The notes below the pieces were generated by a model. That model ran no database searches. It was not told the origin of the DNA and saw only the letters and a program-made list of their open reading frames with translations. Below are positions 1 through 45,876 of a stretch of 64,000 nucleotides of DNA, one piece after another. Numbering within the stretch: position 1 is the stretch's first letter; the number at the start of each line of letters is the position of its first letter. Source of the stretch: Alphaproteobacteria bacterium (GTDB taxonomy: Bacteria; Pseudomonadota; Alphaproteobacteria; UBA9219); the NCBI GenBank assembly GCA_028866275.1, contig JAGWIK010000001.1, forward strand, positions 139,306 through 203,305, read 5' to 3'. Both the position numbers and the translations under genes were made by a program.

Positions 1-284
1 CTGACCGTGCTATTCTGTCGCCTTTATGGGGTGTGAATGCAGATTTTACCGAACACCCGATCAGCTACAGGGAAGCCTTGAATGGCTGGAAACTGGATAA
101 GGAAACGGCGCACGGAATACTCAACATATCCGGCGCATCGGCTTTGGCTGCCGGCGCCGTTCTGATGGATGCTTCCTCCTTCGGGGAAGAAAAGATTCCT
201 GACGATGTGCGACAGGCGATGCTGCGCGAAATTGCCGAGACAACGGATATCCTTAAATGTGCCGGAGGTTATTATGAGCCTTGA
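1..284 (+). CDS. 3' end of an unknown gene (partial; reading frame is open to the window edge)
   Basis: The frame containing the 33..284 ORF has no stop back to position 3. The C-terminal 94 codons end at TGA 282-284 and overlap the next gene start. No family recognised. Confidence 0.35.
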   Translation, partial: DRAILSPLWGVNADFTEHPISYREALNGWKLDKETAHGILNISGASALAAGAVLMDASSFGEEKIPDDVRQAMLREIAETTDILKCAGGYYEP

Positions 285-1407
285 TATTGTTCGCATCGAG
301 CTTTTTGTCATCGAATTGCCGCTTCTTAAACCCTTTACGACCAGCGTTGGCAGCGTTTATTCGCGCCGACTGGTTCTGGTCAAGATGACCGACCGGCAAG
401 GCGTTGTCGGCTGGGGCGAGGCTACGCCTCTTGCGGAACCGATCTACAAGCCAGATTATTTCGGCTCGACCCTGGCTGTGCTGGAGCAAATTCTGGCTCC
501 TGCGGTGCTGCGCCACGGTGTCTACGAAACACCAGAAGCATTGGATGACTCGTTGGCTTTTGTGCGCGGTCATTACTTTGCCAAGGCAGCACTGTCTATC
601 GCGGCTTATGACATTGCCGCGCAGAAGAAGAACCAGAATTTGGCCGAATATCTCGGCGCGACCAAGACGGAAGTTGCCCTGTCCCACACCATTGCCATCA
701 CCAAATCTCCGCAAGAGATGCTGGATGAGGCGGCCCAGGCTATTGAAGACGGCTATAAGGACATAAAACTGAAAATCGCGCCGCAGGCCGATTTGTCCTT
801 TGCTCGCGCGTTGCGTCATAAATATCCTGATCTTCCACTCATGGTCGATGCCAATGCAGCCTACCGCTATAATGACAACACATTGCGGCTATTCCGCGAG
901 ATCGACGAATTAAACTTCTTCTGTATCGAGCAGCCCTTGGACTGGAATGATCTTTACGACCATTCCCGCCTGCAGAAGCAGATCAGAACGCCCATCGCGC
1001 TGGATGAAAGCGTGGACTGCGTTCATGATCTTGAACAAGCTCTGGCACTACAAAGCGGTCGTCTGCTCAACATCAAGATATCGCGTGTGGGCGGGTTAAC
1101 AGCGGCAAAGCGTCTGTATGACCTGGGACGTCAAAGCAAAACCGGACTGTGGGTTGGAGGCATGATCGAAGGCCCGATCGGCTTGGCTTCTGTCATCGCT
1201 TTTAGCGCTTTGTCGGGGCTTGAGTATCCGGCTGACTTTATTGACTCGCATTATCTTATCGAAGGCTTTGCGGATTATTTTGATAAAGAACCGTACACGC
1301 TTGCCGACGGCAAACTGACGCCCCATTTTACAAGATCAGGGCTAGGGCTGGCAATTAATTACGATCATATTTGTCAAAAAGCCGTAACCTATCTATTGAC
1401 CTTCTGA
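274..1407 (+). CDS. Enolase-superfamily enzyme (o-succinylbenzoate synthase / N-acylamino-acid racemase / dipeptide epimerase-like)
   Basis: The 169..1407 ORF has an internal ATG at 274 preceded by GGAGG. Catalytic signatures are present: KxK (IKLKI), MVDANAAY, CIEQP, ALDES, NIKISRVGG. About 377 aa. Confidence 0.8.
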   Translation: MSLDIVRIELFVIELPLLKPFTTSVGSVYSRRLVLVKMTDRQGVVGWGEATPLAEPIYKPDYFGSTLAVLEQILAPAVLRHGVYETPEALDDSLAFVRGHYFAKAALSIAAYDIAAQKKNQNLAEYLGATKTEVALSHTIAITKSPQEMLDEAAQAIEDGYKDIKLKIAPQADLSFARALRHKYPDLPLMVDANAAYRYNDNTLRLFREIDELNFFCIEQPLDWNDLYDHSRLQKQIRTPIALDESVDCVHDLEQALALQSGRLLNIKISRVGGLTAAKRLYDLGRQSKTGLWVGGMIEGPIGLASVIAFSALSGLEYPADFIDSHYLIEGFADYFDKEPYTLADGKLTPHFTRSGLGLAINYDHICQKAVTYLLTF

Positions 1408-1416
1408 AAAAAAATC

Positions 1417-2196
1417 ATGCCCCATTTATTGTCTGCAAAAGAACCGAAATCTTTCAGAATGATACGGGAGAAGAGGGATCGGTCTTTTCTTTTCGTATGT
1501 GACCACGCCAGCAACAAAGTTCCATCCATATTAAATCACCTGGGCCTTCCTGACAGTGAGCTGGGGAGGCACATCGGTTACGATATAGGATCTGCACGTG
1601 TTACGGAAATTCTGGCGAACCAGCTGGGTGCTGCGGCTATTCTTCAAAATTACTCACGGCTTGTAATTGACTGTAACCGTTTTACGGACGAGCCGTCGTT
1701 GATACCTGAAGTCAGCGATGGGACAATTATCCCTGCCAATATTAATCTTTCCACTCAGGACAAAGCCGCGAGGATTGCAGAAATCTTTGATCCGTATCAT
1801 GAGGCCATCGCGGGCACACTGAAGCGCCTTGAGAAAAATAGCCCACCTGTCACGGTAGTGGCCATCCATAGCTTTACCCCTTGCTTGCAACAGAATGGTA
1901 CACAACGACCATGGCAGATCGGAGTTTTGTGGAGGAACGACAAAGAGTCTGCGCACAGGTTGATCAGTTTCCTGCAGCAGCATACGACATGGGCTGTTGG
2001 AGAAAATGAGCCGTATTCGATGATTAATGATAAGAGTTATACCATCAATAGCCATGCTGAAGCCAAAGGCAGGCCTGGGCTTCTTATTGAGATTCGACAA
2101 GATGAAATATCCACAGATGTTGGGCAACAGCGGGTTGCTGAGGTCTTGTGTGCTTTTTTTGACGATTGGGGCAAGAACCCCAAATGCCTCCGGTAA
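1417..2196 (+). CDS. N-formylglutamate amidohydrolase family protein (FGase-like hydrolase)
   Basis: 259 aa with family-like motifs (FVCDHASN, VAIHSFTP). Lies 9 nt after the upstream gene and is AT-rich. Confidence 0.6.
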   Translation: MPHLLSAKEPKSFRMIREKRDRSFLFVCDHASNKVPSILNHLGLPDSELGRHIGYDIGSARVTEILANQLGAAAILQNYSRLVIDCNRFTDEPSLIPEVSDGTIIPANINLSTQDKAARIAEIFDPYHEAIAGTLKRLEKNSPPVTVVAIHSFTPCLQQNGTQRPWQIGVLWRNDKESAHRLISFLQQHTTWAVGENEPYSMINDKSYTINSHAEAKGRPGLLIEIRQDEISTDVGQQRVAEVLCAFFDDWGKNPKCLR

Positions 2197-2304
2197 GTTC
2201 CGTGACAACAAGGAAACAACAAGGAAAAAGCACTCTTCCCCATAAAAAATAGGTTTTCTATCCTGACAGGGATAGCTGCGACTTTTTTTGATGGGGTTCT
2301 TGCG

Positions 2305-3150
2305 TCAGGGTTCGGCAAAAGGGTCTTTGACGTTAACGCCCGGTGGGATGATGCCGTTCGGGCGGCCGGGTTTGAGAAGATAAATGTCCTCGGCATTATC
2401 CAGCGTTCTTTGCGTTGCCATGATGTCGCGAATGGGGGCTCTTTCTCCGAAAATGTAACCTTCGTCACGATAACCATGCGCGCTGTCGCCGTGAATGTGG
2501 CGTATCCAGCAATTGCCGGGATTTTTCTCGGCTTCCAGCCATTCCGGCGCATAGCGCATCCACCCCATCGTTATCGCGCGGACCGTGACGCCGTGGTTGA
2601 TGATAACCGCATGGCGGATGTCGTGCTTGCGCCAATCATCCAGCAGTGTGCCGAAAAAATGTTTGACTCTGATGACGATGTCGATGCGGCTCTCGCCCAA
2701 AGGCGATTTGGCGTAAACTCGTCCATTGAAGTCAATATGCTTTTGATAATCGGCGGCCTCGTTCGGGTGCTGTTCCGTGTAGGAACCGTCATCCAGGCCA
2801 TCGAAAAGCCCTGCCTTTTGTTCAAATAAAAACGGATCCTCGCGATAGGTCAGGGTGCCTGAAGCATGATCAAATTTTCTGCCCAAGGGGCGCAGGACAT
2901 GAAAAGCCGTCTCGCGCGCGCGGTAATACGGGCTGTACCAGACGCGGATTTTCCCGAAATGCTCCGGGTCTTTCCCTTGCGCTTCGAGAAGATGGTTGGC
3001 AAGAAAATTACCGGCACTCTCGGCCTGCTCGACCCCTCTCTCCGTCAGGCGGATCGCATGATCTGCCTTGGTTTGATAAAGACGGCGATTAATATTGCCT
3101 TCGGTTTCGCCATGGCGAACAAGGTAGAGATTGATTTTACTGTCGGCCAT
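2305..3150 (-). CDS. Histidine phosphatase family protein (phosphoglycerate-mutase-like)
   Basis: N-terminal LYLVRHGETEGN is the RHG catalytic motif. 281 aa. Confidence 0.8.
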   Translation of the reverse strand: MADSKINLYLVRHGETEGNINRRLYQTKADHAIRLTERGVEQAESAGNFLANHLLEAQGKDPEHFGKIRVWYSPYYRARETAFHVLRPLGRKFDHASGTLTYREDPFLFEQKAGLFDGLDDGSYTEQHPNEAADYQKHIDFNGRVYAKSPLGESRIDIVIRVKHFFGTLLDDWRKHDIRHAVIINHGVTVRAITMGWMRYAPEWLEAEKNPGNCWIRHIHGDSAHGYRDEGYIFGERAPIRDIMATQRTLDNAEDIYLLKPGRPNGIIPPGVNVKDPFAEP

Positions 3151-3324
3151 TTTGACTTCTTTCTAACAGACAAAACCGTAATATGGGCTGTAAGCTTAGG
3201 CCATCTTCGGTGTTGTGCGAACATAAAATTGGGGTCCGGACATTAACCATAATGCTGCGGCGCGCTGGATTATATTGCCTGGCATATCTGTTCTTGGTAG
3301 CGTTTTGGGGTATTGGAATAACGG

Positions 3325-4407
3325 ATGGACATGATGTCGCAAGGCGAAAAAGAACAAGGTCTTCTGGAACGGGCTTATCTAGCATTTGATCGAGCAGGAC
3401 GAAATATGCATAAACCGGCGCCATTTCCTGATGCGCCCCATGATGCGGCCAAACACATTCAGCAGGCGATCGCCTATGCGCGCGAGAACCCAGTTATCGA
3501 TCTAGATGAAGCCATAAGTAAGGTAAATGCAGGAGAAGCGCCGCCGTCTCTTAACAATCCCATCCTGCAAATTATGAGTGATATTTGGGGCGACATGGAC
3601 GAAGACGCAGGCATTGGCGGTCTCAAGAGAGAGCCGGGTGCGATGACGTTAGTCGATAGGTTGCGCGAGGCAGGAAATCCGCAGACAGAAAAAGAAATTA
3701 CGCTCGCGCGTATCCACGATGTTTTTGATGATTTGCAGATTGGTGGCACAATTGGCTTGCTTATGAAGGATAGTATGCAGGGAAAGGTCGTTTACGGTGA
3801 GATCTCGCCTGAAGATGCTAACAAAATCCTCGACTATCCTCAGGCCATCCTGCAAATCGCGGAGATACATAAAAAAGCTTATGATATGCAACGGCGTTGT
3901 ACGTTGCTGCATCTTGCGGAAAAGGGTGGTTTTGTTCCCGAAATAGTCGGCGCCTATGCTGACAAAGCGTCAACCCAATATCTGGCAGATTTGGGGGTTC
4001 CGGAACTTATCAAGAATGCCGCGACTGCGTCAAAGGATGCGCGCAGAAAGTTGAATAAACAAATTAGATGGGTGATGGCGCCGACGACTTTTGTCGGTGG
4101 TGTAATCGGCGAAACCATACTGTCCCACATCTTCGAATTGTCGAGTCCGCTAAGCTCTGTGGGCGGGTATGTCGATGGCATTATTTGCTACCTGCCTGGG
4201 GCGGTTCTTTTCGGGGCAGCTGCACATCTTGTTTTGAGAAATGGCAAGCCTGCAAGGAATCTTGCGGCCATCAGAAAACCGGTGTTGGTCATCAATGAAT
4301 ATATTCAGGGTGGTTACAAGACAGCGCTGCGGCCGGGGTCGGTGCGCGATGCTGCTGTGGAATTACGGGACGTTCTCAACAAAATACAGCCATCAATACC
4401 GGGCTAG
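3325..4407 (+). CDS. Hypothetical membrane-anchored protein (soluble N-terminal domain, two C-terminal TM helices)
   Basis: 360-aa ORF in an AT-rich segment. Hydrophobic segments WVMAPTTFVGGVIGETILSHIF and GGYVDGIICYLPGAVLFGAAAHLVL. No family recognised. Confidence 0.5.
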   Translation: MDMMSQGEKEQGLLERAYLAFDRAGRNMHKPAPFPDAPHDAAKHIQQAIAYARENPVIDLDEAISKVNAGEAPPSLNNPILQIMSDIWGDMDEDAGIGGLKREPGAMTLVDRLREAGNPQTEKEITLARIHDVFDDLQIGGTIGLLMKDSMQGKVVYGEISPEDANKILDYPQAILQIAEIHKKAYDMQRRCTLLHLAEKGGFVPEIVGAYADKASTQYLADLGVPELIKNAATASKDARRKLNKQIRWVMAPTTFVGGVIGETILSHIFELSSPLSSVGGYVDGIICYLPGAVLFGAAAHLVLRNGKPARNLAAIRKPVLVINEYIQGGYKTALRPGSVRDAAVELRDVLNKIQPSIPG

Positions 4408-4421
4408 ATATCCAAAAAATA

Positions 4422-5593
4422 ATGCAGGCAATGCAACAATATTTTCGACCCCAGATTAACACGTTTACAGACAAGGCCAACTTCGTTTTGTATGGGGCTG
4501 CCGGCGCAGCTTTATGCGTGGGGGTCGAATATGCGACCAATATGCCGAAGTTAGTCATGGGGGCGGCATTTGTTGCCGCTGCTGCTTTCAACTATTTTCA
4601 TACAGTGGGGGCAAACTATATTTTGGATAGAAATTTTCCTCCCACGCCGGAAAAGAAATTGCCTGCCGGGTCAGAAGATTTACCCAATATGATGACGGGG
4701 GTCTCAGAAAAACTCGATGTTTCCTTGCCGCATCTTCATGTCATTGAGGAAAGAAAAGATAACTGGCTTAGTGAAAAGAATGGAATATTTTTGGAGGATG
4801 ATGTCAGGCCATTCACAAAAGACGACATCCGCAGTTACCGTGAACTGGAAGCAGCTGCACTCCTCAGAATAAACGCGAACGCCATGACCTATGGCACCAA
4901 AAAAACGGGCGTGATTGTTCAGGCAAGCTTGTAAAACTCCTGTTGCCTGAGGATAAGGCGTTTCTCATAGCGCATGAGCTCGGACATCAGGCGGCACGTC
5001 ATTTGTCAAAAGCGCGCGCCATTGCCATACTTGCGACGACGGCCAGTTATACCGGCTTCGCCAATTTTATCCTGACGACTTTCAGTAATTGGACGGGGTG
5101 GATGGCGCCTGCCTCGGGGATGGGTATCGCTTTAGGGTCGAGTTGGGCGTTGCCCAAAGTTCTACCTGACTCTGTGTGGAATAAGCATGGCCCTGTTCTG
5201 AAGTTTGCCAGCCCCGCACTTGGTATTGGGGCCATATTGGGCGTTTCTTATCTTAGCCATAATCCGCAGATTGCTGCGGCTTGGGGAATGGCGCTCGCTA
5301 CAAACCTAACGGCAAAAATGGTGTATGCGGGGTATAGCAGGGAAAATGAATTTCAAGCTGATCGCATCGGCGCGGAAACCATCGGCAATCCGCAACAGGC
5401 AGCCATAAGTTTGCAAAATATTCACGAGCATCTTCAGGTAAATGCGGACAAAGCTGCGGCGGGCACAGCTTTAAAAAAGACTTTGATACTTTGGGCGTTT
5501 GAAAGAGCGAAAGAACTTTTTTCCGAGAGCCCTCTCATAGACAAACGCATCAAGCGTTTGGAAAGAATGTCGATGACGCCCCCGATGCCTTAA
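4422..5593 (+). pseudogene. M48 (HtpX-like) zinc metallopeptidase split by a frameshift near 4925-4935
   Basis: ORF 4422..4934 gives the N-terminal TM region and ...NANAMTYG..VIVQASL. ORF 4943..5593 (TTG start) continues in another frame with LIAHELGHQAARH (HEXXH) and the ENEFQADRIG third-ligand motif. Translating that frame upstream of 4943 gives GKLVKLLLPEDKAFLIAHELGH. Together they form one canonical M48 catalytic core. Confidence 0.7.
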
Positions 5594-5760
5594 GGGCTAA
5601 TGGCCCTGTCCGAATACGATGCTTTTTCGGTAAGGTAGGGGCATTATTACACTGTAATAAAATCTGTGGGTAACAGTGGGGGTTCTGGTCTTTTGGTGTT
5701 ACTCGATGTAATCTAACACACTGATTGTGTTTATTTATCTTGCGTTGACATGGTAGGGGT

Positions 5761-5789
5761 CACAGGTTCAATCCCTGTCGCGCCCACCA
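5761..5789 (+). other. Fragment of a tRNA 3' end (T-arm, acceptor 3' strand, CCA); putative att-site remnant
   Basis: cacagGTTCAATcctgt-cgcgccc-a-CCA forms the T-stem ACAGG/CCTGT with loop TTCAATC, a 7-nt acceptor strand, a discriminator and CCA. No matching 5' half (GGGCGCG, D-arm) within 100 nt upstream. Confidence 0.55.
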
Positions 5790-5819
5790 TCTAAATCAAA
5801 AGCTTAGATGGTGTTTTGA
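5785..5819 (+). terminator. Rho-independent terminator-like hairpin right after the tRNA fragment
   Basis: caccatctaa-atcaaaagc-ttagatggtg is a perfect 10-bp stem, followed by TTTTG. Confidence 0.5.
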
Positions 5820-5900
5820 ATTTAGCCTTAAAATTTGGGGCAGTATCCGGGGCAGTAACCCCCTCATCCTCATCGGTTTCGCTAATTATCCGTAATCCAA

Positions 5901-7274
5901 TCATCTGTAATCCGACGTCTTGGCTGCTGACGGCGCAGGGCGGGCGCATCCATTTTTTTCCTTTGTGATGATGCGTGCGACATCGGCTGCTTGTTCGCGC
6001 AATTCCGGAACCGCGATTGATTCATACAATTTGCCTTTCAACAGGCTTCCAAGAACGTACAGGCCGTCGACTTTGTGGCCGGCAGCGTTGCAGGCAGTGT
6101 AATCTTCAGACTCAATGCCGAGCCGGAGATCGTCGGCGGTAATAAGATTGGCTTTCAGCAGATTCTGCACAAGCGGGTCGCCAAGCCTGCGGAAGTCGGC
6201 CTGAGGCCCCGTGCAGCGTACGATTTTCTGAACGGCGAGCGTTTCCGGCGACATCGACCCGCGCGGACGCCAAAGAACATCCACGCCTTTTTCGTGGGTC
6301 GTTTGTTTGATGATCGTGCCGTGATGGAGCGCCAGCCTTCCCGCCTGTTCCAATCCGCGATAGGCGTCCATGATTTTGGGCGCGCAGCGATGGCGATGCA
6401 CATCCCAATAAGCCCGCAAGTGCCTCATAAATCTGCGCTGTTCGTCACGATTTAACGATTGCCAGAGCTGTTGATTCAAGGGGCGCAGGGAATCGATGAC
6501 GGCCTGCCACGGCGTGTCCGGCGCGTCGGCGATTTCCTGGCGTATCCATTTGCACAAGCCAAGCGCTGTCGCGGGATAAGGCGGCCGCATCTTCAGTATA
6601 TGGGATTCCGGATTCGTATGTTCGCGCGGTAACAAGCCGTGTCGCGATAGAAGATGTATTTTGCCGGTCTGTTTGGTTTTTGCCATCGTAACGACCAGAT
6701 CAAGGCTGGTCAGCCCTGTGCCGACAATCAAAATATCCCCGTGGCCGGCCAGGTCTTTCCATGTTTCCGGCGCATAAGGGTTCATCTCGTCTGCGTTGCC
6801 GGAAAGTTGGTCCGGCGGGAAATTGCCCAGAGCCAGAACGATGCTTTCCGATGTCAGAATCCGGCCATCGTCGGAGCGCAATTCAAAACCGTTCTGAAGC
6901 TGCCGGACATCTGCGATGCGGCGCGTCAACAGGCTCAGTCGCGGATTTGCGGCACGGGCCTGGGCCAGAATTTCGCCCAGATAACGCCCGTAAACCATGC
7001 GCGGCGCGAAATCCTGTCTGGACAAGTTGATGTCAGGCTGCGCCTCGAGCCAATGCCAGAAATGGCGTTGATCATCTGCGAACGCGCCCATTTGCTCGGC
7101 CCGCACATTTAAAAGGTGATCGGGGTCAGTGGTGCCATAGGCAAGCCCGCGGCCCGGGATGGGGTTTCTTTCAATAAGGGCCACGGGCATGTCCGGAGCA
7201 AGCCGCGCAAGATGGACGGCGACCATCGTGCCGCAGAAGCCGGCGCCGATAATGGCAACTTTATAGTCCGGCAT
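5901..7274 (-). CDS. FAD-dependent oxidoreductase (FAD-NAD(P)-binding family)
   Basis: N-terminal KVAIIGAGFCGTMVA is a Rossmann GxGxxG motif. 457 aa. Confidence 0.75.
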   Translation of the reverse strand: MPDYKVAIIGAGFCGTMVAVHLARLAPDMPVALIERNPIPGRGLAYGTTDPDHLLNVRAEQMGAFADDQRHFWHWLEAQPDINLSRQDFAPRMVYGRYLGEILAQARAANPRLSLLTRRIADVRQLQNGFELRSDDGRILTSESIVLALGNFPPDQLSGNADEMNPYAPETWKDLAGHGDILIVGTGLTSLDLVVTMAKTKQTGKIHLLSRHGLLPREHTNPESHILKMRPPYPATALGLCKWIRQEIADAPDTPWQAVIDSLRPLNQQLWQSLNRDEQRRFMRHLRAYWDVHRHRCAPKIMDAYRGLEQAGRLALHHGTIIKQTTHEKGVDVLWRPRGSMSPETLAVQKIVRCTGPQADFRRLGDPLVQNLLKANLITADDLRLGIESEDYTACNAAGHKVDGLYVLGSLLKGKLYESIAVPELREQAADVARIITKEKNGCARPAPSAAKTSDYR

Positions 7275-32064: not shown

Positions 32065-33081
32065 ATGACCGCCTCCATCCGCGTTTCCATCAACGGTTTC
32101 GGCCGCATCGGCCGCCTTGTCCTGCGCGCCGCGTTCGAAGCTGGCCGCGACGATATCGAAATCGTCGCGATCAACGATCTTGCTTCGGCGGAAACCAATG
32201 CCCATTTGCTGAAATATGATTCCGTGCATGGCCGTTTCGACGGCGATGTCGCCGTCGACGGCAACGATCTGATTATCAACGGCAAGCGCGTCAAGGGTTT
32301 GCAGGTGTCCGATCCGGCCAAGCTGGGATGGGGCGATCACGGCATCGATGTGGCGATGGAATGTTCGGGCCGTTTCACCAAGCGCGACGATGCGTCGGCC
32401 CATTTGAAAGCCGGGGCGAAGAAAGTCCTGATTTCCGCGCCCGCCACCGATGAAGACATCACGGTGGTTTACGGCGTCAATCACGGCGAATTAAAGGCCG
32501 CGCACACCGTCGTGTCGAACGCGTCCTGCACCACCAATTGCCTTGCCCCCGTGGCGTTTGTGTTGAACAACGCGATTGGCATCGAACACGGCTTTATGAC
32601 CACCATCCATTCCTATACCGGCGATCAACGCACCGTCGACACGATGCACAGCGATTTGCATCGCGCCCGCGCCGCGGCGTTGAACATGATCCCGACCTCG
32701 ACAGGCGCCGCCAAGGCGGTGGGCAAAGTGTTGCCCGCGCTGAAGGGCAAGCTCGACGGCACATCGATCCGCGTGCCCACCCCCAACGTTTCCGTGGTCG
32801 ATTTCAAATTCACCACCAAACGCGCCACGACGGTTGATGAAATCAATGCCGCTATTTCCGCCGCCGCGTCGAACGGGCCGTTGAAGGGCATTCTGGGGAC
32901 CTATACCGAGCCTCTGGTATCGTCGGACTTCAACCACGATAAACGGTCGTCGATTTTCGCCTTGGGCGAAACCAAGGTTATTGACGGCACTTTCGTGCGC
33001 GTCATGAGCTGGTACGACAATGAATGGGGCTTTTCGAACCGCATGTCGGACACGGCCGCGGCGATGATGGCCGCGAAATAA
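32065..33081 (+). CDS. gap: Glyceraldehyde-3-phosphate dehydrogenase
   Basis: INGFGRIGR and SNASCTTNCLAP active-site motifs. 338 aa. Confidence 0.95.
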   Translation: MTASIRVSINGFGRIGRLVLRAAFEAGRDDIEIVAINDLASAETNAHLLKYDSVHGRFDGDVAVDGNDLIINGKRVKGLQVSDPAKLGWGDHGIDVAMECSGRFTKRDDASAHLKAGAKKVLISAPATDEDITVVYGVNHGELKAAHTVVSNASCTTNCLAPVAFVLNNAIGIEHGFMTTIHSYTGDQRTVDTMHSDLHRARAAALNMIPTSTGAAKAVGKVLPALKGKLDGTSIRVPTPNVSVVDFKFTTKRATTVDEINAAISAAASNGPLKGILGTYTEPLVSSDFNHDKRSSIFALGETKVIDGTFVRVMSWYDNEWGFSNRMSDTAAAMMAAK

Positions 33082-33096: not shown

Positions 33097-33450
33097 TTAT
33101 CGGGTGCGTGTTTTTATGACGTCCCCTTCGACTTTCCATCCGGCTTCACCGTATATGTAGGGAATATACCATTGGTAGCTTGTCACGGTGACGTCCGTCA
33201 TGACGTCGCCGTCTGACTTCCTGAAAGCGTCGGTCAGAGCGTCGGAAAGATTAGGATTCGTTTTAGTGGGGATCAAAACAAAGATTTGGGATTTGTCCTC
33301 ACCCACAACGTCTTTTGTTTTGGTGGCTTTGCCCAAGTCAAATTTACTGACATTGACAATCTTGTTTGACATCACTGTGAATGTTCCCTGATTGGTCGTG
33401 CAGCCGGACAGGGCGAGGGCGATTAGCGGCAGAGCAATTTTTTTCATCAT
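33097..33450 (-). CDS. Small lipoprotein, paralog 1 (unknown function)
   Basis: MMKKIALPLIALALSGC lipobox. Start trimmed to ATG 33450. AT-rich. TAATG overlap with the upstream paralog. Confidence 0.65.
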   Translation of the reverse strand: MMKKIALPLIALALSGCTTNQGTFTVMSNKIVNVSKFDLGKATKTKDVVGEDKSQIFVLIPTKTNPNLSDALTDAFRKSDGDVMTDVTVTSYQWYIPYIYGEAGWKVEGDVIKTRTR

Positions 33451-33794
33451 TAGTTCCCCCTGGTCTTGACAACGGTGCCTTGGATTTCGATCGTCTGCTG
33501 ACCAACCAGGAACCACCAGGATTTTCTGTAAACCGAAGCATCGACCATTAAGTCGCCGTTTGTTTTTCTTAACGCGTCATCAAGCGCCCCTTTCAATGTG
33601 GGTTGGCCAAAGGGGATGAAAAGGAAGACAAACCGGGAGTCGTCGCCGACAACATTTTTAATTTGCGGCGCTTTGTCGAGATCAACCGTTTTCAAATCCA
33701 CATTTTTATTAGAGACGACCGACAAATCGGTTACATAGGTTGTGCAGCCGGAAAGGAAAAGTAAGGCCACAATTAAAGAGGGTATTTTATTCAT
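33450..33794 (-). CDS. Small lipoprotein, paralog 2 (unknown function)
   Basis: MNKIPSLIVALLFLSGC lipobox. Shares with paralog 1 the pattern V.SNK.V....DL.KA....VVG.D.....L.IP ... DAL..A.RK..GD.M.D and a C-terminal KTR. Confidence 0.65.
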   Translation of the reverse strand: MNKIPSLIVALLFLSGCTTYVTDLSVVSNKNVDLKTVDLDKAPQIKNVVGDDSRFVFLFIPFGQPTLKGALDDALRKTNGDLMVDASVYRKSWWFLVGQQTIEIQGTVVKTRGN

Positions 33795-33922: not shown

Positions 33923-34897
33923 ATGGTGGTATTAGTCACCGGCGTCGCGGGCTTTATCGGCTTTCATGTCGCCAAGACTTTGCTGGCGCGCGGGGACGAG
34001 GTCATCGGCGTCGACAATCTGAACGATTATTACGATGTTGCGTTGAAACAGGCGCGGCTCGATCTGCTGACGCCGCACAAAAACTTCTTGTTCCGCAAAA
34101 CCAGCATTGCTGACAAAGATGCGATGTTGCCGTTGGCCCGAACGGGCATCACCCGTATCGTCCATCTGGCGGCGCAGGCGGGCGTGCGTTATTCGCTGCA
34201 AAACCCGTTCGCCTATGCGGAATCGAATCTGATGGGGCAGGTGGTGATGCAGGAACTGGCGCGCCATACGCCGAACCTTGCGCATTTCGTTTATGCCAGC
34301 TCGTCATCCGTTTACGGCGGCAACACCAAAATTCCGTTCGCGGTCGGCGATGCGGTGACGAAACCCGTGTCGTTGTATGCCGCGACCAAATGCGCCGACG
34401 AATTGATGGCCTATACTTACGCGCATCTGTACCGCATCCCGATGACGGGGCTGCGTTTCTTTACCGTCTATGGCCCGTGGGGACGGCCCGATATGGCGGC
34501 TTATATTTTCACGCGGCAGATATTGGCGGGCGAACCGATCAAGGTTTTCAACCACGGCAAGATGCGGCGCGATTTCACCTATATCGACGATATCGTCGCG
34601 GGCGTTCTGGCCGCTTTGGAAAAACCTCCCGTTGATAAAGGCGCGGAACCGCCGGTCGCGCTGTATAATCTCGGCAATTCACAGGCCGAGGATTTAACGC
34701 GCTTTATCGCCGTGCTGGAGAATGCGCTGGGCAAAAAAGCTATTATCGATTTACAGCCGATGCAGCCCGGCGACGTGCCCGAAACATTCGCCGATATCGC
34801 GGCCAGCGCGCGCGATTTGGGTTTCAAGCCCATGACGGGCATCGAACAGGGCATCGAAAAATTCGTGGCATGGTATCGGGGCTATCACGCCGGTTGA
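33923..34897 (+). CDS. NAD-dependent epimerase/dehydratase (UDP-glucuronate 4-epimerase-like SDR)
   Basis: VLVTGVAGFIGFHV Rossmann motif and YAATK catalytic motif. 324 aa. Confidence 0.85.
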   Translation: MVVLVTGVAGFIGFHVAKTLLARGDEVIGVDNLNDYYDVALKQARLDLLTPHKNFLFRKTSIADKDAMLPLARTGITRIVHLAAQAGVRYSLQNPFAYAESNLMGQVVMQELARHTPNLAHFVYASSSSVYGGNTKIPFAVGDAVTKPVSLYAATKCADELMAYTYAHLYRIPMTGLRFFTVYGPWGRPDMAAYIFTRQILAGEPIKVFNHGKMRRDFTYIDDIVAGVLAALEKPPVDKGAEPPVALYNLGNSQAEDLTRFIAVLENALGKKAIIDLQPMQPGDVPETFADIAASARDLGFKPMTGIEQGIEKFVAWYRGYHAG

Positions 34898-45104: not shown

Positions 45105-45395
45105 GTGAATATAGGCCTAGTCGTTAACGCACGCGGAAAGATGTGCCTGGTTCATGACGAACCCTTTGAAGCGACGCCGCTGTGGGTCGGTTATCATGTT
45201 GATTCTAAACGTTTAGAGATCATTTACGATACCGGTGGCACCTATCCCATCGATTGGGAGGCAACCGACGAAATGCATAACTTCTTGCTGAAAATAAATA
45301 AAATCCTTATAATTCGTATGGAAAATAAAAGACCGGTGGAAGGATTCGATACCAGCTTCCTTCATTTGCAAAACGGCAAAGTCATAGACGAATAA
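45105..45395 (+). CDS. Hypothetical small protein (AT-rich)
   Basis: 96-aa ORF with GTG start after GGAGG. Noticeably lower GC than its surroundings. No family. Confidence 0.35.
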   Translation: MNIGLVVNARGKMCLVHDEPFEATPLWVGYHVDSKRLEIIYDTGGTYPIDWEATDEMHNFLLKINKILIIRMENKRPVEGFDTSFLHLQNGKVIDE

Positions 45396-45417
45396 ATTAT
45401 TATCGAAAAGGTGACGC

Positions 45418-45876
45418 ATGACCGACCAGATCGACGATCAAGACGCCAACGGGCAGGAAATCCGTCGCCGTCAAAAAGGCGAAGGTGATGGCGAACAGGC
45501 CGGCCGCGGCATTGTCAAGATGTTGACGACCCGCAAGGCCGAACAAGTCACGGGCGAACACCGCCATTTGACCGGCGCGGATCTTATCGAAGCCATTGTC
45601 GAATTCGTCAGCGAACCGTTGATCGCCTCGGCCTCGGCTGTTGTGGAATTCGTCAAGGGCGTCAAGAACGCGGTGGCGAACCCCAAATCTTTCGCCGTGA
45701 CCAATTGGTTCACCGATTTGCAAAAACATGTCGACGATCTCAGGCTGCAGCTTGCGCGCGCGCGCGGCGCCGACGCCAACGGGTTGGCGCAGAAGCGACA
45801 ACCCGGGCATCAACCCGGCCACGGGCTTGCGCCGAAACTGAACCTGACGCCGACCGGCCCGACCGGCGCGCAATAA
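45418..45876 (+). CDS. Hypothetical protein (acidic N-terminus, Pro/Gly-rich C-terminus)
   Basis: ATG after AAGGTGA. Strong GC3 codon bias on this strand, whereas the overlapping minus ORF 45400..45873 lacks it. 152 aa. Confidence 0.5.
   Translation: MTDQIDDQDANGQEIRRRQKGEGDGEQAGRGIVKMLTTRKAEQVTGEHRHLTGADLIEAIVEFVSEPLIASASAVVEFVKGVKNAVANPKSFAVTNWFTDLQKHVDDLRLQLARARGADANGLAQKRQPGHQPGHGLAPKLNLTPTGPTGAQ

Follow-up and report, generated by a model that had tools for sequence, protein, structure and literature searches.

The attP site of a tRNA-targeting genomic island carries a fragment of the tDNA, and integration restores the tDNA while displacing its original end (PMC4383910). Among the 3919 islands of the Islander database, 3760 leave a 3' fragment, which must be present downstream of the tDNA in the same orientation (PMC4383910). 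By the Islander definition, the full-length tDNA is sought 2-200 kb upstream of the 3' fragment and in the same orientation, with the integrase between the two (PMC4383910). Two crossover sublocations, the anticodon loop and the T-loop/acceptor junction, are used by the tyrosine integrases that target tRNA genes (PMC4383910, Table 1). The anticodon-centred 'A' site is used by 2083 of the 3919 Islander islands (PMC4383910), and this anticodon-loop sublocation of islands and prophages is credited to Williams 2002 as cited in Hudson et al. 2015 (PMC4383910). A comparable arrangement can be read from the GenBank record of the Acetobacter prophage phiAX1 (LC644973.1), whose att sites are not described in PMC8566455. 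An intact tRNA-Val gene (45383-45457) and a tRNA-Val fragment (5329-5373) are present there on the same strand with about 40 kb of phage genes between them; a CDS annotated as 'integrase' is located 82 nt from the fragment, and the genes beyond this interval are of host type.

We analysed a 64-kb stretch of DNA, hereafter the window, from a metagenome-assembled genome (MAG) of an uncultured alphaproteobacterium. Like the Islander-type islands, the window contains a non-coding piece of a tDNA 3' end running from the anticodon loop to the 3' end, and its composition is anomalous upstream of this piece while native genes are present downstream. Unlike the Islander definition, which requires both the cognate tDNA and an integrase, neither of these is found within the window, where 5.7 kb upstream of the fragment are visible. 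The fragment is likely to be the original 3' end of a tRNA-Val gene, displaced (as attR) by a tyrosine-integrase element that used this gene, with the island on its left and the native core on its right. The features concerned are as follows.

1-5744, no strand: low-GC block with a foreign genome signature, the putative right-hand end of an island that continues past the left edge of the window
Left edge: hypothetical protein of about 500 aa, of which only the end is in the window; it runs off the window edge intact and is the cassette partner of the menC-like gene
274-1407, plus strand: enolase-superfamily enzyme (MDE1900141.1; Pfam MR_MLE_N/C, TIGR01928)
1417-2196, plus strand: FGase-family (N-formylglutamate amidohydrolase-like) hydrolase (Pfam PF05013, 1.4e-44)
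2305-3150, minus strand: histidine phosphatase superfamily protein, branch 1 (Pfam PF00300, 1.4e-22; PHROG phrog_12933, unknown function)
3325-4407, plus strand: hypothetical protein of 360 aa with hydrophobic C-terminal segments
4422-5593, plus strand: M48 (HtpX-like) zinc peptidase gene, frameshifted, in two ORFs in different frames
5745-5789, plus strand: orphan 3' fragment of tRNA-Val(GAC), from the anticodon loop (TTGACAT) to CCA, tRNA positions 32-76; putative attR core
5785-5818, plus strand: intrinsic-terminator-like hairpin and T-run with a 10-bp stem and a 9-nt loop (inverted repeat I3, dG -12.2 kcal/mol)
5901-7274, minus strand: FAD/NAD(P)-binding oxidoreductase, YdhS-like (MDE1900147.1; Pfam NAD_binding_9; GC3 0.64)

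The fragment is 45 nt in length and consists of the anticodon loop (TTGACAT) with the anticodon GAC, the 3' strand of the anticodon stem (GGTAG), the variable loop (GGGTC), the T-arm (ACAGG, TTCAATC and CCTGT), the 3' acceptor strand (CGCGCCC), the discriminator A and CCA. The preliminary description of this DNA had recognised a 29-nt stretch as T-arm, 3' acceptor strand and CCA. Positions 5761-5789 do contain these elements, together with the discriminator A, and the tRNA identity is real, but the match is longer than described and runs upstream to position 5745. In an alignment, all 45 nt are identical to intact tRNA-Val(GAC) genes of three other Alphaproteobacteria (L038, L120 and L123), the comparison set being at least about 120 alphaproteobacterial loci listed as containing the same 32-nt tRNA end. 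The chance expectation for sub-patterns of the fragment of 22-25 nt is 0 (100 shuffles). The five nucleotides preceding position 5745 (TTGCG) are mismatched to the anticodon stem CTACC, and the tRNA identity begins with the anticodon loop, at its first base, a position that corresponds to crossover sublocation class A of PMC4383910. The fragment is a 3'-terminal and not an internal piece of the tDNA, and it lies in the non-coding intergenic region 5594-5900. No tRNA gene was found by ARAGORN in the whole 64-kb window, which shows no complete cloverleaf of a functional tRNA. Rfam gave no tRNA match in the window even at E<=10, and the conserved 5' half of tRNA-Val (GGGCGCGTAGCTCAGCGG...) is absent from the 64-kb window when up to 3 mismatches are allowed.

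Behind the fragment, the arm CACCATCTAA (5785-5794) is perfectly paired with TTAGATGGTG (5804-5813) and is followed by TTTTGAAT; the 5' arm of this hairpin overlaps the last 5 nt of the fragment (CACCA), and UUUUGAAUU is present directly after the stem-loop. Judged from its sequence, 5785-5818 would form the stable stem-loop and U-run of a Rho-independent terminator. A consensus terminator scan did not list this hairpin, most likely because the scan accepts loops of 3-8 nt only while the loop here is 9 nt. Both the missing 5' half and the perfect 10-bp terminator hairpin, as proposed at the outset, were thus borne out by the searches and by the pairing, stability and T-run of the hairpin. The trailer past CCA (5790-5813) contains the motif AAATCAA-N3/4-CTTAG, which is common to 3 of the 124 other tRNA-Val ends examined (L064, L103 and the viral L136); this may point to related hosts or to an att identity continuing beyond the tRNA. 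Two short sets of tandem direct repeats are also located in the native flank. One (5837-5860; GGGGCAGTATCC/GGGGCAGTAACC) is found past the terminator but before the FAD-oxidoreductase gene is reached at its 3' end; the other (5884-5913; AATTATCCGTAATCC/AATCATCTGTAATCC) overlaps the last codons of that gene.

The DNA to the left of the fragment differs strongly in composition from the DNA to its right. The GC content is 0.50 in the left 5.7 kb as compared to 0.60 on the right, with values of 0.49-0.53 across 1-6000, and the switch is located at about 5.8-6.2 kb, coinciding with the fragment. The six left ORFs have GC3 values of 0.49-0.61 (mean 0.53) against a mean of 0.69 for 54 right ORFs (Mann-Whitney p=1.7e-4). 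The dinucleotide relative-abundance distance (x1000) to the rest of the window is 140 for the left block and 14-46 for ten other blocks of equal size; the corresponding tetranucleotide distances are 38.5 and 8.6-12.6. The signature is uniform over 1-5744, where sub-blocks differ by 19-75 from each other and by 140-148 from the right flank. It is nearer to that of two contigs of 52% GC, L001 and L125 (delta* 54-80, with 54 for L001), than to that of its own contig (140). Compared with the flanking chromosome, the left block shows the anomalous composition and accessory content of an island. A second, smaller low-GC islet is present at 33097-33794 (GC 0.46-0.49, GC3 about 0.55). It contains two small minus-strand ORFs, one of them with a weak match to a lipoprotein signal, and is located between gap (32065-33081) and a gene for an NAD-dependent epimerase (33923-34897).

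The gene at 274-1407 is of the o-succinylbenzoate synthase / N-succinylamino-acid racemase (menC-like) type and is the second gene of a two-gene cassette whose first gene encodes the hypothetical protein of about 500 aa. The FGase gene starts 10 nt past the end of the menC-like gene. The closest metagenome relatives of the FGase are at most 48% identical, and in none of their loci is a menC-like gene present. No relative of the histidine phosphatase was found in IMG/VR. The 360-aa hypothetical protein has no match in Pfam, NCBIfam, PHROG or PADLOC and no relative in the JGI metagenomes. In the M48 gene, a single-base frameshift is located near 4917-4921, in ...GTGATTGTTCAGGCAAG..., just 5' of the HELGH motif. 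Restoring 1 nt gives a 390-aa protein in which the Pfam M48 match runs across the junction (64 bits vs 50 bits); the frameshift could mark a true pseudogene or an error in the MAG consensus. No close relative and no phage, plasmid or defence affiliation was found for the FGase, the histidine phosphatase, the 360-aa hypothetical protein or the M48 peptidase. PADLOC gave no match in the left block, and phrog_12933 is the sole PHROG match there. Compared with plasmid and phage records, the DNA of the left block has no match other than the tRNA segment 5745-5789. We found no phage or plasmid signal in 1-5744 and, by Pfam and by tblastn with 6 integrases, no integrase-like or transposase-like sequence in 1-5744 or in the whole window. 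The preliminary description was correct in calling the left side AT-richer, as windowed GC, GC3, dinucleotide and tetranucleotide measures agree that the composition is not uniform. Its list of accessory genes (enolase-superfamily enzyme, FGase, histidine phosphatase, hypothetical protein and M48 peptidase) was likewise confirmed, except that the M48 gene, said to be decayed, carries only the single frameshift.

The leftmost 1.36 kb of the window is similar to three contigs (L001, L002 and L125) at 78-80% DNA and 85-87% protein identity, and the similarity ends at about 1364. The GC content of these contigs is 51-52% throughout. The menC-like gene is 87% identical in amino acids and 80% in nucleotides to L001/L002, and 85% identical in amino acids to L125. 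Five relatives of its product are found at 87, 85, 85, 83 and 82% amino-acid identity, as compared to a best value of 79% for the core protein CysS of the right flank. A protein of about 470-507 aa without a Pfam domain is always present immediately upstream of, and overlapping, the menC-like gene in L001, L002, L125, L217 and L218. The neighbours of this cassette differ in every relative examined, as is expected of accessory DNA. In L001, metG lies upstream and HTS, HU and cytochrome bd lie downstream; in L125, a helicase gene lies downstream; in L217, an amidohydrolase gene lies upstream, a Bro-N protein gene downstream and a zeta toxin gene about 5 kb upstream. In two relatives the cassette is located near metG in apparently ordinary chromosome. 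Taken together, the similarity to contigs of 51-52% GC, the changing neighbours of the cassette, the signature nearer to L001 and the closer relatives of the menC-like protein than of CysS indicate that the left block was acquired from a lower-GC alphaproteobacterial lineage. The window proteins MDE1900141.1 (menC-like), MDE1900147.1 (FAD oxidoreductase) and MDE1900149.1 (CysS) are each the sole member of their own 90% cluster, and therefore no close strain is present in the collection of 15 billion proteins.

The segment 5745-5789 also has counterparts in independent elements and loci, several of them with an integrase beside it. The only BLAST match of the left block among phage records is to phiAX1, with 44 of 45 positions identical over 5745-5789. 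The window and phiAX1 have their bacterial class in common, and in both the tRNA concerned is Val(GAC). The repeat of phiAX1 is longer than that of the window, extending 6 nt further in the 5' direction (ACTACC) and about 18 nt past CCA, and where phiAX1 has phage genes and an integrase the window has metabolic and hypothetical genes and no integrase. The exact 45-mer is present in 4 IMG/VR contigs, once within an intact tRNA-Val(GAC) and three times as an orphan (L133, L134 and L136). The latter three, found on predicted viral genomes, lack the 5' half of the tRNA and represent copies of the attP or attR type, without protein or arm similarity to the left block of the window. In L136, an integrase lies beside the fragment on its downstream side, that is, on the arm ending next to the rebuilt tRNA. 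The phage-borne copies (phiAX1, L133, L134 and L136) begin 2-6 nt before the equivalent of position 5745, within the anticodon stem.

Among the matches listed, at least nine other alphaproteobacterial loci have an orphan tRNA-Val 3' fragment broken at the anticodon stem-loop (L010, L012, L017, L025, L051, L071, L078, L082 and L107). In five of them (L051, L010, L082, L012 and L025), a P4-like tyrosine integrase with Arm-DNA-bind_3, Phage_int_M and Phage_integrase domains is present directly upstream of the fragment, whereas the window has none; arms and flanks of these five loci are not similar to those of the window. The locus L051 has the anticodon GAC and shares the exact break position of the window; downstream of its fragment, L051 is similar to the flank of the intact gene in Acidiphilium (L024).

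To the right of the fragment, the FAD oxidoreductase gene is the first gene of the higher-GC native flank and is convergent with the tRNA fragment. It is followed by the core genes ABC-F, cysS and glmS, and gap and mreB are also present in this flank; no integrase was found in it. Relatives of the FAD gene (L003 and L124; 72% and 64% amino-acid identity) and of cysS (L128 and L129; 79% and 76%) show no synteny with the window and lack a tRNA-Val at these places. An empty site was not met in the nearest relatives because they are too distant and non-syntenic. None of the FAD, ABC-F and cysS genes of the window is present at any of the about 120 tRNA-Val loci among the matches listed, and neither the arm 5450-5744 nor the flank 5790-5900 has a match in any fetched locus.

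These observations can be combined into a model in which the anticodon loop of the chromosomal gene would have been the site of recombination with a tyrosine-integrase element that carried the 3' segment of tRNA-Val(GAC) in its attP. The attP copy of the 45-nt segment would have completed the tRNA at attL, on the left and outside the window, while the chromosomal 3' part would have stayed at attR (5745 onward) with its native terminator hairpin (5785-5818). Its native downstream neighbours, namely the FAD oxidoreductase, ABC-F, cysS and glmS genes, would likewise have been kept at attR. Positions 1-5744 would represent the right-hand end of the element, or its remains, with a predicted metabolic cargo comprising the cassette of the roughly 500-aa hypothetical protein and the menC-like enzyme, the FGase, the histidine phosphatase, a further hypothetical protein and the frameshifted M48 gene; the block points to a lower-GC alphaproteobacterial lineage as its putative source. 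The orientation of the fragment places the island on the left, which is also the compositionally foreign side. We infer that integration caused the break and that the intact tRNA-Val and, possibly, the integrase lie beyond the window. The initial claim of a displaced tRNA 3' end at an island junction agrees in this respect with the fragment, the class of the break, the composition, the side of the island, the core right flank and the integrase-linked analogues; its remainder concerns DNA beyond the window.

Several points count against the attR reading. Integrase, transposase, phage and plasmid signals are missing from 1-5744 and from the whole window. No intact tRNA-Val was seen in the 64 kb, and the nearest relatives gave no empty site. 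An integrase adjoins the fragment in phiAX1 and in the five MAG analogues, while the frameshifted M48 gene takes this position here. The cassette lies near metG in two relatives in ordinary-looking chromosome, and the sequence is a MAG contig in which an assembly join is conceivable. By analogy with the downstream-arm integrase of L136, the integrase may be present at the other end of the element, or it may have been lost. In many tRNA islands the integrase is located at the tRNA-proximal end.

Alternatively, the junction could be the trace of an old event. The fragment would then be the attR of an element that is gone as a unit, with its integrase and most of its body deleted or replaced, and the low-GC DNA would have arrived or been rearranged independently, with no nearby intact cognate tRNA in an island configuration. 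We consider such a fossil junction unlikely. It would account for 5.7 kb without a mobility gene where an integrase abuts the fragment in phiAX1 and the five MAG analogues, for the frameshifted gene adjoining the junction, and for the patchwork-like left block, in which the cassette is shared to about 1364 only and the later genes have no close relatives. However, the fragment is undecayed, with 45 of 45 positions identical to functional tRNA-Val(GAC) genes, and the signature is uniform across 1-5744 in the terms given above. Moreover, an integrase at the tRNA-proximal end would sit outside the window, and that of L136 lies downstream of its fragment.

A related possibility concerns the nature of the left block rather than the origin of the fragment. 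As the cassette is found near metG in two relatives, the block resembles chromosomal DNA of another lineage more than a recognisable mobile element. It is conceivable, but rather improbable, that it is an ordinary piece of chromosome of a lower-GC alphaproteobacterial lineage that came as cargo of, or alongside, a tRNA-Val-targeting element whose integrase was lost or is distant. If true, a segment of chromosome would have passed from one lineage to another with a tRNA att site as its anchor.

It appears very unlikely that the 5' half was lost without an integrase, in a deletion, an IS-mediated rearrangement or an illegitimate recombination event with which the left DNA also arrived. The window without an integrase would fit such a truncation, as would L071, where an orphan tRNA-Val(CAC) fragment is preceded, at a distance of about 100 nt, by an IS6-family transposase gene. 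Against it, both the window and L051 are broken precisely where the anticodon loop begins, and the phage-borne copies start 2-6 nt earlier; no IS, inverted-repeat end or transposase similarity was found nearby.

Most improbable among these accounts is an assembly chimera, in which the MAG contig would join alphaproteobacteria of about 50% and about 60% GC near a shared tRNA and the step in composition would be an artefact. The MAG origin of the sequence, the large and abrupt step in GC, GC3 and signature, and the left-block signature and best homologues from another clade of 52% GC are in line with it, and the sole sequence conserved enough to bridge two genomes sits exactly at the step. However, a join through a shared tRNA-Val would leave the whole gene, since both of its halves are equally conserved, and the loss of the 5' half here makes a chimera unlikely. 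The orphan fragment must then have pre-existed in one parent, so that integration would be needed anyway, in addition to the chimera. The assemblers in common use also end with k-mers longer than a repeat of 45 nt, and other low-GC islets, for example that at 33.1-33.8 kb, lie inside the 60% part. An island on the right side of the fragment was rejected, since core genes and baseline composition are found there, no integrase is present, and it is the wrong side for a 3' fragment.

If the attR reading holds, the fragment fixes to the base (5744/5745) where a horizontally acquired block ends on the right in this uncultured alphaproteobacterium, and it names tRNA-Val(GAC) as the target gene, which is useful for the annotation of this MAG. 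The six left-hand genes call for caution against treating them as native when the organism is placed or binned. The locus would be a further instance of a well-known signature that is catalogued by thousands in databases such as Islander, and it raises no new mechanistic question.

A few observations concern tRNA-Val loci elsewhere. In 12 of the about 120 alphaproteobacterial loci among the matches listed (L007, L028, L035, L041, L053, L058, L072, L079, L096, L097, L106 and L112), glmS precedes tRNA-Val(CAC) by 2-4 kb and is encoded on the other strand. In the window, which has no tRNA-Val(CAC), glmS and the fragment are 5 kb apart and differently arranged. This conserved linkage of glmS with tRNA-Val was rejected as evidence for the native locus, as all 12 cases concern tRNA-Val(CAC) with glmS divergent and upstream.

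The circular Acetobacter phage phiAP1 (L131 921-968; LC644972.1 41838-41885) carries a tRNA-Val(CAC)-like 3' fragment from the anticodon stem to CCA. It was set aside as an analogue because its published attachment site is a 24-bp sequence in tRNA-Ser (PMC8566455); the tRNA-Val(CAC)-like fragment may have remained from another att site, either a second or an ancestral one. Lastly, three different Rhodospirillales-type MAGs (L017, at about 2410-2491, L071 and L107) have, immediately before their orphan tRNA-Val(CAC) 3' fragments, a near-identical arm in common (GGACCCAACTGCACTGAATGGGCAGAAGTTCTC, at least 33 nt), and the likeness of these arms suggests the presence of one element family at the same site.
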